A stretch of DNA of 64,000 nt, from positions 800,001 to 864,000 of the forward strand of contig CAWCIZ010000003.1 in NCBI GenBank assembly GCA_963795855.1. Reading direction: 5' to 3'. The position numbers are program-made. Positions within the stretch are counted from its first letter, which is position 1. Each line of letters opens with the position of its first letter. Of the stretch, positions 15,001 to 33,000 are shown one piece after another. Source of the DNA: Vulcanimicrobiota bacterium. Lineage in GTDB: Bacteria > Vulcanimicrobiota > Vulcanimicrobiia > Vulcanimicrobiales > Vulcanimicrobiaceae.

Positions 15001-18000
15001 GCTGGCGTAGGAGTTTACGTGAACGAAAATTTTCAAGGCACCGGCCGTCGTAAGCGCTCCATCGCGCGAGTTCGCATCTCGCTCGGTCAAGGCGTCATCA
15101 CCATCAACAAAAGACCGATCGATGATTACTTCCCGCGCCAGACGCTGCAGCAAATCGTGCGCCAACCGCTCGACGCGACGCAAAGCGGTTCGCGCTTCGA
15201 CATCGACGTCAAAACGCAAGGCGGCGGGCCCACCGGACAAGCCGGCGCCGTTCGGCACGGCATCGCTCGCGCGCTCGTTTCGATGGACGAATCGCTGCGC
15301 GAAGTGCTGCGCAAGCAGGGTCTGCTGACTCGCGATCCGCGCGAAAAAGAATCGAAGAAGTACGGACGCAAGCGCGCCCGCAAACGCTTCCAGTTCTCCA
15401 AGCGCTAATGAAACCGAAAAGAGCCGCCGAACGCGGCTCTTTTTTGTCCTACACGCTTCCGCTCGACGCGGCACTCATCGTTTTGGGCGTCGTTGCGGCG
15501 CTTTGGCGTCCTTCGCCGGAGTGGGTCGAGCGGCGGTTCAGCAACGGCTACTATCCGGCATGGCAGCATTTTTGGTCGGCATTCACGCCGTCGTTGCCGT
15601 TTGCGCTCGGCGATATAGTCGTGCTGGCCGGCGTCGCGATCGTCGTGGCGGCGCTGATTTTTGCGCGGCCGTGGTGGCGCGCGCTCCTCGGCATCGCCGC
15701 GGTTGCCGGACTCTACGCCGTGTGGTTTTACGCCGGCTGGGGTTTCGGGTACGACCGCCCGCCGGTTCAAACCCGCGTCGTCTACTCGCCCGCCCGATTG
15801 AATTCCGCGCACGTGCTGGCTCTTCGGGCGCGTGCAATCGCCGAAATGAATCGTCTTGCACGGGCTGCGCATGCGCAGCAGCGCGCAGACGATCTCGACA
15901 TCGAGCAGTTGCGCGCCGCCTGGATGCCCGTAGTGGAACGCCTGGGCGACGGCTGGACTCCCCGCGTTCATGCCGCCAAATCACCACTTGCCGGCTGGTT
16001 CATGGACAAGAGCGGCACGAGCGGCTTCACCAACCCGTTTACGCTCGAAACGCAGCTCGCTCCGGATCTGCTGTGGTTCGAGCGCCCGTTTTCACAGGCG
16101 CACGAGTGGAGTCACGTGGCCGGGTTCAACCGGGAAGACGAAGCAAACTACATCGCCGTGCTGACGTGCCTGCGCGATCCCGACGTCGTCGCCCAGTATT
16201 CGGGCTGGCTCGAGCTCTTTCTCTACCTGCCGCAGAAAACGCACTATCGCCGCGCCGAGTTTACGGCCCAGGTATGGGCGGATTTCCAGGCCATACGCGA
16301 ACGCAACGCCCATTTCGTCAACCTGGACCTCTCGCGGTTCTCGTGGCGTGTCTATAACCGCTATCTGAAGAGCAACAACGTGGCCTCCGGCGTCCAAAAT
16401 TACGACCAGGTCACCGACCTCATGGCCGGGATCCCGCTCGATCTGCAGGGGCTGCCGGTCGCCGCGGCCAAGGGGACGGCCCGGTAAATCCCTTGGGTTT
16501 TGGGGTGGGATTTGATCGGGTATACCACGTGTGATGTTCGACAGCCAAAACACTCAGCGTTTAACCGACCTCGACGCGCATGAAAATGCGATGGCGCTCC
16601 CCATTGCTGAAGTGGTCTCGCAGCTCGTCGAGATTTTAGGCGCCACGACGGTCGCGGTCATCGGCGGCGTCACGGAAACGCGCGCCGTCCAGCAGTGGAC
16701 CACCGGGCGAGAACCCCACCACCCGCACGTACTGCGCTTCGCCCTGCAGATAGCCACGATGATCTCTTCCAAAAACGGCAGCTGCGAGGCTGCTCGCGCT
16801 TGGTTCCAGGGAAGCAATCCTCGTCTCGAGGACGGAATCCCCGCCGTGATGCTGCGCAGCGAACCGCTGGAAAACATTCAAGCGCCGCTCATGAGAGCCG
16901 CGCGCGCTTTCGCCTCCCGCTGACCCGTATCACACCTGCAACGCCATCTCCGGCGCAGCCGCCAATGCCATCTTGAACGCGTCTGCGCTGCTTGAGAGAA
17001 TGGCGGCATGGTATTACGCGCCGGCGCCGTCGTTCACGAACCCACCCTCCGGGGCGATTCCGTGCATGTCCTCGGCGACGTAGATGAATCCAATTCTTCC
17101 GAATTGGAAGAAGTGCTCGCTCGCGTCGTTCCGCTCGGCCGCAACGTCACCATCGATTTGACTCGCTGCCGATACATCGGATCGGCGGCATTGCGGCTTC
17201 TGCTCCGCGCAAGGCGTAACGCGCATGCCGATTTCGGCACGCTGGTGCGTCCCGAGAGCCTGGCCGATCGCGTGTTGCGGGTCGCAAAGCTCGACACGTT
17301 TTTGAGCGTGCAGCAGGTCGAGGTGGAGCAGGCCGACGTTTATCACTCGGACGAACCGATCCGCGTGGTTGCGCTCGAAGGCGAATGGGATCTTTCCCGC
17401 GGCGCCGAGCTGCGCCGCAAATTGGATCGCGCGAGCCGCGATCCGCGCGTCGTGCTGGATCTTTCGGGTATGCAACTGATCGACTCCAATTGCATGGCGA
17501 TGATCGTCCGCATGCGAACGCAGCGCGTGGCAAAGGGATATCCGTCGGCACCGCTGGTCATTCCGCACCGCGGCGTACGAAAACTCTTCACCATTTCCGG
17601 TTTAGCCCAGTTGTGGAGCATCTTCGATACGCTCGATGAGGCATTTGCGGCACTGCAATAATTCGATAACACCGTCGTTGCTCTGAGGACATGGCCGCTG
17701 CTTATCGTAGCGGCATGTTCGACGTAGCCGGACCCCTGGCAAATGCGCTCGCTCTTTCGCGCAACGGTTTAGCCGACGCCGCAACCGGCACCGCTCGCGC
17801 GCAGACGCCGTACGGTTCGCCTCGCAGCGATGCCGCGATGGCCGGCGCTGCGGAACAAGCGATCTTTCAGGAAGCGCTGCTCGACGCGCTGCACGCCCGC
17901 CTTGCCGAAATCAAGAATGCCGCACATGGATAGCCTCGGGTTATTGAAAACCGCGGCTTCCGGCATGGATGCGCAGCGCGCCGTCCTCGATATCGAGGCG

Positions 18001-30000: not shown

Positions 30001-33000
30001 GAGCGTGACGATCGAGGAGCCGCTCCAATTTTCCGCATTCGCTCCAGCCCTGCTCATCGCGACGCTTTTCCGATTGTCGCTAGACGTGTCGGCGACACGG
30101 CTGATTCTTACGCAAGGCCATATCCCGGGTGGGGCGGGCGCGATTATCCCGGCGTTCGGCGAGTTCGTCGTGCGCGGAAATCTGGTCGTCGGGCTCATCG
30201 TCTTTGCGATTCTCGTCACGATTCAGTTCATCGTCATTGCGAGCGGATCCCAGCGCGTCGCGGAGGTCGCGGCGCGCTTCACGCTCGACGCAATGCCCGG
30301 AAAGCAGATGGCGATCGATGCGGACGTCCACGCAGGCGTGCTCGATGCGGACGGTGCGCGCCGCAAGCGCGAACGCGTTCAGAAAGAAGCGGATTTCTAC
30401 GGCGCGATGGACGGCGCCGGAAAGTTCGTCAAGGGCGACGCAATCGCGGCGCTCATCATCGTGGTGCTCAACCTCACGGGCGGTGTCGCCGTCGGCGTAT
30501 TCTACCACGGCATGTCCGCCGTCGACGCGCTGCAAACGTTCGCGCTGCTCTCCATCGGAAACGCGCTCGTGACGACGCTTCCCGCGTTCCTGATCTCCAC
30601 GGCAATGGGTATGATGGTCACTCGCGTCGCCGCGGACGGTTCGCTGGGATCGGATCTGGCGTCACAACTGTTTGCGCGTCCGGAGATACTGCGTGCGGCG
30701 GGCGCGCTGCTGCTCGCGCTTGCCGCCGTTCCGGCTTTGCCGCGCCCGGTTTTCATCGTGCTGGGATTGAGCGCGTTTGCGGGTGCACATGCAGCGCAAA
30801 AACGCAAGTCGTTTACGGCGGCGCTCGCGCAGCACGAACGAGACGCTGCTAAGCGTCAAGCGATCCGCCGTCCGGAGATGGCGCTCGGGCTCGTCGGCGT
30901 CGACGCGGTCTGCATCGAAATCGGCTCTAATCTCGCGCACTTGCTTGCATCGCCGCTGGCGGACGCGCTGCTCGACCGCATCGGCGAAGTCCGCCGCGCA
31001 CTTGCAGCGGAGATCGGCATCGTGCTTCCGGGCGTGCGTCTGCGCGACGATTTGACGCGCGATCCGAACACGTATGCGATTCGCGTGCGCGACGAACTCG
31101 CCGGCGAGGGCACATTGCAACTCGATCGTATGATCGCCGTTGCGGAAGACCCAATCCTGGAGCAGATCGACGGCGAAGCGGCCTTCGAGCCCGTCTACGG
31201 ATTGCCCGCGAAATGGATCGATCCCGCGCAGCGCGAGCGCGCGTTGGAACGCGGCGCGCTCGTTTTCGACGCGATCTCGATCGTCGGATCGCACTTGGCA
31301 GAAGCCGCGCGCTCGCACGCCGGCGCGTTGCTTGGGCGTCAGGAACTTCAAACGCTGCTCGAACATTTGCGCGCGACCGTGCCGACTGTCGTGAAAGAGA
31401 TCGGAACGGAAGCGCTGCCGCTTTCCGCCGTGCAGAAGGCGTTTGCGCTCTTGCTCCGCGAGCGGATCTGGCCGCGGGATCCCGTCGCGGTCCTCGAGGC
31501 AATGATCGAAGCGGCGCCGGCGAGCCGCGATCCGCGGGATCTCGCCGAGGCGGCTCGGCGCGCGGTCGTCCCCACGCTGCTGCGGCGGCGCGGGGTCGAC
31601 GAACTCGAACCCTTGCTGCTCGATCCCCAGTTCGAGCGGAGCCTCGGCGATTCGCTGGACCCGCAGCTGGCCTCGCGCCTGCGAGACCATGCGCAAGTCT
31701 ACCTCGCGCAGATGCCGCCGAGCCGCGCTGCGCTGGTTTGCACGACGGCGGTGCGGCCGCTCATCGCCGACTTTCTGCTGCGTTCGGGGGTCAGGCTGGC
31801 GGTATACAGTTATGGCGAAATCCCCGCAGAAACTCGCCTGACCCCCGCGAGTATCCTTAAGGAAGAATCGTTGGCGGCTTAGCGAACACCCCGCAGGCCC
31901 ATTTGACCGTCCCGTCCGGGACTGTTAGACTTCTAGGGTTTGGCCCGTCCTTGTGGCGGGTGCTGCTTTTTTCCGCGGTACACATGAGCTGGAATAGATA
32001 TAAGAATCCGATCAAGGCGCTGGTCGTGCTGGCGATCCTCGCGCTCAGCCTGTGGGCGATGCTGCCCATTCAGAAGAAGATCCATTTGGGTCTGGACCTG
32101 CGCGGCGGCGCGCATCTGCTGCTCCAGCTCACGCCGACCGAACAGGTCAAGACGATAACGCCGGAGATTCAGGCGGACACGATGCAGGTCATCGATCGCC
32201 GCATCAACGGCCTGGGCGTGACGGAGCCGCAGATCGCAAAAGTCCGCTCCGATCGAATCTCGGTCGATTTGCCGGACGTCAAAGATCCGGAAAAGGCGGA
32301 AGCGGCGCTCAAGCAAGTCGCGGTGCTCGAGTACAAGATCATGCCGGACAACGTCCGCGTGGCCGCGGATGCTGCGCTTGCCGCGTGCAACGCGAATCCG
32401 AAGGACAAGAAGGCCTGCGATTTCGTGAACATCGGCGCGTACAAAGCCAGCGGGCCGGTCGTGTACAGCGGTAAGGATTTGAAGTCGGCGCAGCCTGCGT
32501 TCGACCAAAGCAATAACCCGGACATCATCTTCACGACCAAGGATCCGAAGAAATTCTACGACATCACCTCGAAGAATCTCGGCCGTCCGCTCGCGATGTT
32601 CTTGGACAAACACTATCTCTCCGCGCCGACCATTCAAGGCCCGATTTCGGATACGGGTCAAATTACCGGCCAGTTCACCCAAGACCAAACGGCGTCGCTC
32701 GCTAACGACCTCAACGCCGGCGCGCTGCCCGTCGGCATCGTGATCATCGAAAACGACACGATCGGGCCGACGCTCGGCAACATCGATCTCGCCATGTCGC
32801 TGCGGGCGTCGATGCTCGGTCTAGCGCTCGTGCTGCTCTTTATGATGTTCGTGTACCGTCTGCCGGGCTTTTTGGCCGACGTCGCTCTCTTGATTTACGT
32901 TGCGATGATGCTCGGGCTGCTCGCAGCGGCGCACGCGACCCTCACGCTTCCCGGGATCGCGGGCTTCGTGCTTTCGATCGGTATGGCGGTCGACGCGAAC

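Follow-up and report, generated by a model that had tools for sequence, protein, structure and literature searches.

The genome of the Vulcanimicrobiota bacterium GCA_963795855.1 carries, besides its canonical flagellar genes, a separate and conserved set of hook-basal-body and export genes on contig CAWCIZ010000003.1. This second system is under purifying selection and is retained in genomes without flagellin, FliG_C, MotB, FlgD or the P and L rings, which upholds the survey's finding of a separate, non-rotating export apparatus. It is judged, with somewhat better than even confidence, to be an old, vertically inherited type III exporter of hook-basal-body parts that is distinct from the swimming flagellum and unable to rotate.

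Gene content of the cluster

The window is the whole stretch of 64,000 nucleotides that was analysed, and the cluster lies on its + strand throughout. From FlgC to FlhA, the gene set, order and coordinates described by the survey were reproduced, as were the canonical flagellar set on contigs C1 and C2 and the flgF2, flgG2 and fliA2 genes at C3:709876-712848. The first gene is a very short flgB-like gene (17691..17933; about 72 aa in relatives), identified by its position, which has no Pfam or NCBIfam match; it is conserved in 12 of 20 loci, and the other of the two classes carrying the operon has a recognisable flgB in that slot. Next are flgC (17926..18261; Flg_bbr_C, E 1.5e-7, with FlgC the top NCBIfam model) and fliE (18258..18527; PF02049, E 3.8e-7), which reaches the TIGR00205 cut-off. 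The following gene (18531..19995, start approximate) joins fliF, with YscJ_FliF and YscJ_FliF_C matches, to a FliG_M tail (E 8.9e-7). It is frameshifted near 18695 in the assembly; in 14 aligned relatives the fusion is one whole ORF of 479-503 aa, and its tail motif EP[PA]H has invariant E, P and H. A short fliH (19988..20476; PF02108, E 1.9e-11) precedes fliI (20473..21705), the export ATPase gene. FliI evolves very fast in the host's class and has a long branch in the tree; its P-loop, GERGxE, Walker B and SxSR motifs are present in 16 of 19 loci of this class.

Three genes are less constant: a soluble lytic transglycosylase (SLT; 21709..22260; PF01464, E 3.5e-28), a clan-AA aspartic protease (22151..23813; PF13650), which is frameshifted near 22565 and whole in relatives, and metF (26922..27815; PF02219). 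These occur in 14, 16 and 19 of 20 family loci, respectively, and were rejected as constant members. The transglycosylase has the identical slot in the other class. The protease is absent from f3 and other-class operons, and metF is missing from the fliP-fliQ interval of f2, f3 and other-class loci; neither is accepted as a core part. The protease is a probable passenger, and metF is a passenger within the operon in the host's family.

The 421-aa "FlgF-like" ORF reported at 23874-25139 proved to be two genes fused by an assembly frameshift, one of about 180 aa and FliK/SctP-like, the other encoding a FlgE-position protein of 239 aa. The first (23874..24426, frameshift between 23981 and 24106; 173-185 aa in most relatives) is probably a degenerate mini FliK/SctP-like ruler. 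In 2 of 11 members it matches Pfam Flg_hook under the cut-off (E 0.0019), ESM Atlas gives HpaP/SctP clusters at 0.94 and 0.92, and the predicted order of elements is helix-3 strands-helix-strand. A clear FliK occupies this slot in 9/9 other-class loci, to which hhalign aligns the ruler at only E 0.18. Fold searches with the ruler model (pLDDT 65) gave no clear match and no FliK or SctP chain among the results, and its profile found no match among PDB sequences. The second gene (24420..25139) encodes an axial protein with D0 and D1 and without D2. Its best profile match is FlgE (E 3.6e-12, against 1.4e-5 for FlgG and 9.8e-5 for FlgF), in two pieces flanking the missing D2. Rod and hook subunits match the model of an ortholog from the same genus (pLDDT 89.9), and the predicted D0-D1 fold resembles polyrod-forming FlgG. 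A short FlgE was rejected as proof of non-motility; the FlgE of a Paenibacillus flagellum has 276 aa.

The remaining genes are fliM (25136..25894; FliMN_C), which in alignment with canonical FliM has no N-terminal CheY-binding peptide; fliN (25931..26209; PF01052, E 1.7e-24), exceeding the TIGR02480 cut-off; fliP (26252..26908), above the TIGR01103 and below the SctR cut-off; fliQ (27850..28116; PF01313); fliR (28113..28829; PF01311); flhB (28830..29826; PF01312 in two frames), with an NPTH site; and flhA2 (29864..31882; PF00771, 669 bits). The break in flhB is an assembly frameshift near 29203, as the survey had suspected; relatives have single ORFs, and NPxH is present in 30/30 FlhB ORFs scored. 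The hook-position protein, the FlhB cleavage site and a probable ruler are all retained, so the label "rod-only" given earlier is unsupported. The survey's FlhA2 scores of 633 on TIGR01398 and 511 on TIGR01399 were obtained again, as were the identities between the second and canonical sets (FlhA 38%, FliI 36%, FliP 48%, FliF 25%).

Conservation, selection and missing motor and filament genes

The operon had been ascribed to one family; it was found phylum-wide, in both classes and in most of the phylum's genomes sampled, with the order flgBC-fliEF(G)HI(J)-slt-fliK-flgE-fliMN(O)PQR-flhBA maintained. Full FliG, FliJ and FliK are kept in the other class. The host's class has no FliJ gene in the operon, and a FliJ above the cut-off was found in 1 of 5 genomes. 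In 5/5 closed family genomes and 5/5 other-class genomes, flgF-flgG is followed by a FliA-like gene. A scan with a sigma-28 consensus, made without a shuffle control and given no weight, found 52 loose matches, of which none lay at the cluster. A related short-hook system is present in Melainabacteria.

Among 120 genomes of the host's family, 108 have FlhA2 (at least 57% identity) and 67 have flagellin; FlhA2 occurs alongside a full flagellum in 62 and without flagellin in 46. Across the phylum, the second system is more faithfully kept than the flagellum itself. It can also be lost: 7 of the 120 have neither FlhA2 nor flagellin, and the rod genes too are lost in G037 (98% complete) and G115.

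No PF00669 match exceeded the cut-off in 46 of 108 family carriers, 15/15 f3 genomes and 39 of 58 other-class genomes. The search for stators covered MotB, whose plug was found in 1 of 43 genomes from the 46 flagellin-less family carriers. FliG_C is present in 69 of the 120 family genomes, where it tracks flagellin, and is absent from the FliF-FliG_M fusion. FlgI, FlgD and FlgH were found in 0/19 flagellin-less genomes of the host's class (0/13 family, 0/6 f3) and in 1/10 of the other class. The five closed flagellin-less genomes contain exactly three Flg_bbr_C genes each. In the full FliG of the other class, the equivalents of R281 and R297, to which a passage of PMC6079164 assigns a torque role, are gone in 6/6 proteins. 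The CheY-binding peptide is missing from FliM in 6/6 other-class proteins and in the family alignment.

The cluster is under purifying selection: dN/dS is 0.03-0.28 for 11 genes of the system and its passengers (0.08 for metF, the control), and 107 of 108 genomes have no stop within the FlhA2 match. In FlhA2, the equivalents of Arg94 and Asp208 are kept; at the position of Asp249, every system member checked has Asn, whereas 104 of 121 motif-bearing representatives have Asp. A portion of PMC3139655 describes Asp249 of Salmonella FlhA as critical for export, and Asn is not among the substitutions given there. Together with the fast evolution of FliI, this change may point to a low flux.

Proposed working and alternative explanations

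In the exporter proposed here, FliPQR-FlhB-FlhA would sit in the FliF ring and be fed by FliH-FliI and by a ring of FliM/FliN attached to the FliG_M tail. Exported FliE, FlgB, FlgC, FlgF, FlgG and D2-less FlgE would form a short straight tube, for which the lytic transglycosylase would open the wall. Together, the short FliK-like ruler and the cleavage of FlhB would stop the tube early and redirect export to late proteins of non-flagellar type, perhaps controlled by the FliA-like sigma factor. As filament and motor are missing, protein export is more probable than swimming, and secretion of non-flagellar substrates may be its function. The tube would most likely end in the periplasm or at the outer membrane, given that there is no P or L ring and no linked secretin. 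Seven secretin loci are annotated: six belong to type IV pilus or Tad loci, and the seventh (L066) lacks neighbours of either kind. None lies in the operons; the second system might share one of them. A SctF needle, SctD ring or translocon was not seen among the operon genes, and no substrate, chaperone, tip or outer-membrane channel was found. The degenerate FliK-like gene, the loss of FliJ from the operon, the fast FliI, the Asp249 change, the loss of the system in some genomes and the missing FlgD, whose cap canonical hooks require, likewise count against this working.

A regulatory checkpoint, by which the apparatus exports nothing but its own components plus an anti-sigma factor, so that completion of the structure switches on a FliA-like regulon (for development, dormancy or an envelope state), is rather unlikely. 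It would account for the FliA-like gene behind flgF-flgG in all ten genomes, the kept ruler slot and FlhB switch, and the lack of visible effectors. However, FlgM exceeds its cut-off in only 1 of 5 flagellin-less genomes, a weak objection for so small and divergent a protein, and a full rod, hook-position protein and transglycosylase exceed the needs of a switch.

Less likely still, the tube itself may be the product, exporting little beyond its own subunits and serving as a periplasmic strut, a membrane tether or a platform for cell-cell bridges of the kind proposed for nanotubes. Parts of PMC9380563 describe export-gate relatives in nanotubes and hat-like structures. The polyrod-like fold predicted for the D0-D1 subunit, the lack of late substrates and the low flux suggested by Asp249 and FliI would agree with such a structure, but the ruler slot and the FlhB cleavage site, which matter only with a second class of substrates, are kept.

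Very little probability is given to a second, highly divergent motile flagellum whose filament escaped recognition and whose stators, of the ExbB/TolQ type, are borrowed. In its favour, the set of axial rod genes is complete, there is a C-ring, a short FlgE serves the Paenibacillus flagellum, five flagellin-less other-class genomes contain weak MotB-plug matches (E 1e-6 to 4e-5), and three genomes of one genus contain weak flagellin-domain matches below the cut-off. Against these stand the deletion of FliG_C in the host's class, which makes motility unlikely, the lost torque arginines in the other class and the lack of P and L rings; moreover, a cultured strain of the phylum, which may or may not carry the cluster, has neither flagella nor flagellin according to a section of PMC9758169. 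A slowly decaying relic of a lost flagellum, suggested by the stepwise trimming of FliG, FliJ, FliO and FliK in the host's class and by loss of the system in some genomes, is equally improbable and in the main refuted by dN/dS far under 1, retention oftener than the flagellum, FlhA2 matches free of stops and the gene order shared by both classes.

Relation to flagella and injectisomes

In unrooted trees from quick searches, with SH-aLRT supports, the second system forms one clade (99), beside canonical flagella (99-100) and Sct (100). The five-gene tree places it outside both canonical flagella and injectisomes in the sample used, and it is no member of the SctV clade. Over seven hand-built topologies, the five-gene AU test rejected descent from either own flagellum of the phylum (p-AU 3e-7); a recent duplication of the own flagellum is rejected. 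Sisterhood with injectisomes was not rejected (p 0.145 for five genes, p 0.56 for FlhA); thus, the claim that the system arose independently of the injectisome is unproven. A homogeneous FastTree of FlhA separated the two classes, with the host's class near high-GC flagellar rows. This counts against monophyly, but is taken here as an artefact because a site-mixture model and shared residues join both classes. The rooted FliI tree gave no usable root, since host-class FliI was drawn to the F1 outgroup, the other class grouped with Margulisbacteria (81), and the system did not join SctN. The row labelled SctN_Chlam in this tree is a flagellar-type Chlamydia FliI.

A bolder reading, only tentatively entertained, makes the second system a third major class of type III machine that also occurs in Melainabacteria and perhaps in Margulisbacteria. 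As the living sister group of the injectisome, it would be a hook-basal body already without motor, cap and filament, yet without needle or secretin, and a survivor of an early flagellum-to-injectisome step.

The type III family is usually divided into flagella and one injectisome clade, with filament-less cases seen as products of recent reduction. The motorless version described here is conserved phylum-wide and branches outside both groups in the sample used. Its graded series, from near-complete sets (full FliG, FliJ, FliK) to trimmed ones (FliF-FliG_M fusion, mini ruler), provides natural material for the question of the minimal conduit and bears on hook assembly without FlgD and on the origin of the injectisome. 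In these genomes, as in some Melainabacteria, the presence of flagellar genes should not be taken as a sign of motility.

With the flagellar hook-basal body, the second system shares gene order and a homologous gate, ATPase, FliF, FliE, FlgBCFG, FlgE, FliK, FliM/N and FliA-like sigma factor. It differs in mostly lacking flagellin, FlgD, FlgH/FlgI and MotB among the carriers searched, in a lost or altered FliG torque part, in having no CheY input, and in branching outside the sampled clade of canonical flagella. Filament-less machines for which export of non-flagellar proteins was proposed or shown are described in portions of PMC13468123 (Buchnera basal body) and PMC7688988 (Lysobacter enzymogenes fT3SS). 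Those arose by reduction of the only flagellar set in the cell, and FlgD is still secreted by Lysobacter; the second system is a separate, phylum-wide paralog. Like the injectisome, it is non-rotating; SctN and SctU models give FliI2 and FlhB2 slightly higher scores than flagellar models do, and the probable ruler resembles SctP/HpaP by its features. Unlike the injectisome, it has no linked SctC, no SctF or SctD seen in its operons, and a FliF that is not a lipoprotein SctJ, and all Sct scores are under cut-off. The needleless T3SS* of Myxococcales, a candidate Tad pilus partner in passages of PMC3459982 and PMC12075869, is likewise without secretin or needle, vertically inherited and conserved. 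According to a part of PMC3459982, however, it has no FlgBCDEK and no FliE/FliG, whereas the second system keeps the rod, the hook-position protein, FliE and parts of FliG; in the present trees T3SS* falls inside the Sct clade and the second system outside it.

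Gene content and order of the second system

The second-system genes listed by the survey on the forward strand, from 17691 to 31882, were borne out by a Pfam search, and tblastn against the genome likewise returned one canonical paralog for each, 25-48% identical. The canonical regulon itself is located on contigs C1 and C2 and includes flagellin, FlgD, FlgH/I, MotA/B and a full FliG. Among 20 loci from 19 genomes of the family Vulcanimicrobiaceae (two covered in part, one of these later completed), the gene order is flgB', flgC, fliE, fliF::fliG_M, fliH, fliI, [slt], [protease], X, flgE', fliM, fliN, fliP, metF, fliQ, fliR, flhB, flhA; the exceptions are one inverted locus and one without a fliI match. 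The cluster often lies between secD and genes that, from their sequence, we take to be rplM/rpsI/truA-like. A tandem STAS-domain gene immediately upstream (17008-17661) was found among the 20 loci only in the same-genus locus. The G+C content at 40001-60000 is 51-58%, against 60-67% elsewhere, and this may be an island.

The single ORF previously described as FlgF-like is in fact two genes: X (23874..24426) and flgE' (24420..25139). The best profile match of flgE' is FlgE, in two pieces flanking an absent D2. Its predicted model (pLDDT 89.9) combines a coiled-coil D0 with domain D1 and resembles rod subunits as well as hook subunits; the FlgE label thus rests on sequence and position, not on fold. 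For X, a weak Pfam match, Atlas look-alikes and position make a FliK/SctP ruler in degenerate form the probable identity; profile and fold comparisons gave no clear match.

Distribution in the phylum

An FlhA match was present in 191 of 200 genomes of the phylum sample. The family sample comprised 120 genomes at least 90% complete, in which an FlhA match of at least 57% identity, some fragmentary, was called FlhA2. FlhA2 was found in 108 of these and flagellin in 67: both in 62, FlhA2 alone in 46, flagellin alone in five (four assemblies of 280-370 contigs, one of 50) and neither in seven. These counts take in five unpublished genomes (G015, G017, G038, G094, G107), which are absent from all trees and alignments. 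MotB was detected in only one of 43 FlhA2-alone genomes searched (three unpublished ones omitted), namely G035. FlgI, FlgD and FlgH were found in none of the 13 flagellin-less family genomes searched, and in none of six such genomes of f3, another family of the class.

Several genomes depart from the common condition. G035 (1.9 Mb), with canonical FliG as well as MotB and no flagellin match, carries two second-system copies (L053, L054; FlhA 57-58% identical to that of the window), one inverted and one without a fliI match; two FlhA2-like copies also occur in G038 and G093. Genus g37 displays stepwise loss: G088 and G108 retain flgF-flgG with no FlhA or flgC match, and G037 and G115 match none of these. 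In G019, closed and without flagellin (L069, L070), isolated canonical-like fliJ and fliO were observed, and flgM adjoins fliW. Weak flagellin N-domain matches (E ~1e-4, below cut-off) occur in G102, G110 and G117, of one flagellin-less genus.

In f3, 14 of 15 genomes have an FlhA match, none of the 15 has flagellin or MotB, and the operon is in two separate parts. The other class of the phylum, Xenobia in GTDB, has an FlhA match in 58/58 genomes and flagellin in 19. Its operon, over the parts covered in nine cases, reads fliG-fliH-fliI-(fliJ)-slt-fliK-short flgE-fliM-fliN-(fliO)-fliP-fliQ-fliR-flhB-flhA, with neither flgD nor motAB. A second locus, found in all five genomes tested, holds a FliK-like/FlhB-C-like gene, flgF, flgG, rod-binding flgJ and fliA, and no flgAHI. 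Some genomes of this class show a large expansion of ORFs that resemble the FlhA cytoplasmic half alone (loci L096-L117; genomes G147, G155, G162, G122, G127), three of them having 10-19 PF00771 matches each. G155 also has a lone full-length FlhA paralog (L132), and G147 has a divergent one (L134).

Ancestry of the export gate

An FlhA tree under a site-mixture model (37 rows, of which 21 were selected from 80 named loci) falls into four groups: the canonical flagella, among them this genome's own (support 99), the second system (99), SctV (100), and Margulisbacteria with a second Melainabacteria system (93). The split was the same with five gate proteins (28 rows, 1606 columns). Seven topologies built by hand were compared by AU tests that used site profiles from the best tree. 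These rejected a sister relation of the second system to either of the phylum's own flagella (p 3e-7 and 2e-52) and the grouping of this genome's class alone with Sct (p 2.5e-4). We conclude that the second system is not an injectisome and is not copied from the flagellum of the phylum itself. The earlier claim of an origin independent of the injectisome is not supported: the system falls outside SctV, but sisterhood with Sct survives in the five-gene test (p 0.145; Margulisbacteria as sister, 0.096) and for FlhA alone is 1.35 log units better (p 0.56). Counter to these results, a homogeneous-model tree splits the second system, and the FliI tree does not join it to SctN; composition is uneven from row to row, and the trees are unrooted.

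Outside the phylum, Melainabacteria records contain a second basal-body cluster of flgC, slt, fliE, fliF, fliH, flhA and fliI. Their short FlgE, which directly follows fliJ and fliK in one record, shares a DP..K..GKY stretch with that of the other class. It was matched at 93 bits or more in 20 of 61 Melainabacteria genomes (frames of 287-316 aa); weaker matches in ten further genomes may be FlgG. One record, which may be incomplete, has the second set and no flagellin. In a tree with long branches, the short FlgE of all three groups lie together to one side of a branch with support 81. A common origin of the Vulcanimicrobiota and Melainabacteria short-hook systems is likely rather than established, because the Melainabacteria FlhA lacks the Asn change described below and does not group directly with the Vulcanimicrobiota system. 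In Melainabacteria records (L179, L226, L290-L294), the FlhA of this second set has an MDGAMKF motif that otherwise occurs in SctV rows.

Probable export without rotation

ATPase motifs are present in FliI at 16 of 19 class loci, NPxH in 30/30 FlhB ORFs, and the equivalents of Arg94 and Asp208 in second-system FlhA. The Asp249 equivalent is Asn in every second-system FlhA in which the motif was read; this is a derived state that the two classes share, and it calls for caution on export rate (PMC3139655). FliG_C is deleted in this genome's class, and second-system FliM has no CheY-binding peptide. In the other class, the equivalents of E. coli FliG R281 and R297 (PMC6079164), identified by motif after aligning two canonical FliG with the second-system proteins, are lost in six of six FliG. 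Together these make rotation and chemotactic control very unlikely.

The reading we favor, at a little over even chances, is an exporter that has a short tube and does not rotate. Substrates and an outer-membrane exit were looked for and none was found. Separately, locus L066 (G012) encodes a secretin adjoining an adenylate-cyclase/NB-ARC/TPR gene; the neighbouring genes that were scanned include none of a pilus or Tad system. Five closed genomes have three Flg_bbr_C genes apiece, namely flgC and, at another site, flgF-flgG with a FliA-like gene after them. A sigma-factor checkpoint has perhaps one chance in five. A structural strut or bridge is less probable still. A cryptic motor is very improbable.

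That the cluster is a relic is no more credible than a motor. The assembly is 86% complete, and frames are broken in fliF, the protease, the gene preceding flgE and flhB, as canonical motB and fliD are also split; since the corresponding ORFs are whole in relatives, the second-system breaks are most likely sequencing indels. As to selection, dN/dS between the window and same-genus G058 is 0.03-0.28 across 11 whole or partial genes and 0.08 for metF, values that are rough at dS ~1.

A literature search of titles and abstract openings, covering few subscription papers, returned no description of this second system. Further literature was drawn on (PMC9758169, PMC9259500, PMC12248157, PMC12075869, PMC13468123, PMC9380563, PMC7688988). 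The kind of system is already known, because PMC3459982 reports that a dozen species without flagella have flagella-like loci and that exaptation has occurred repeatedly.
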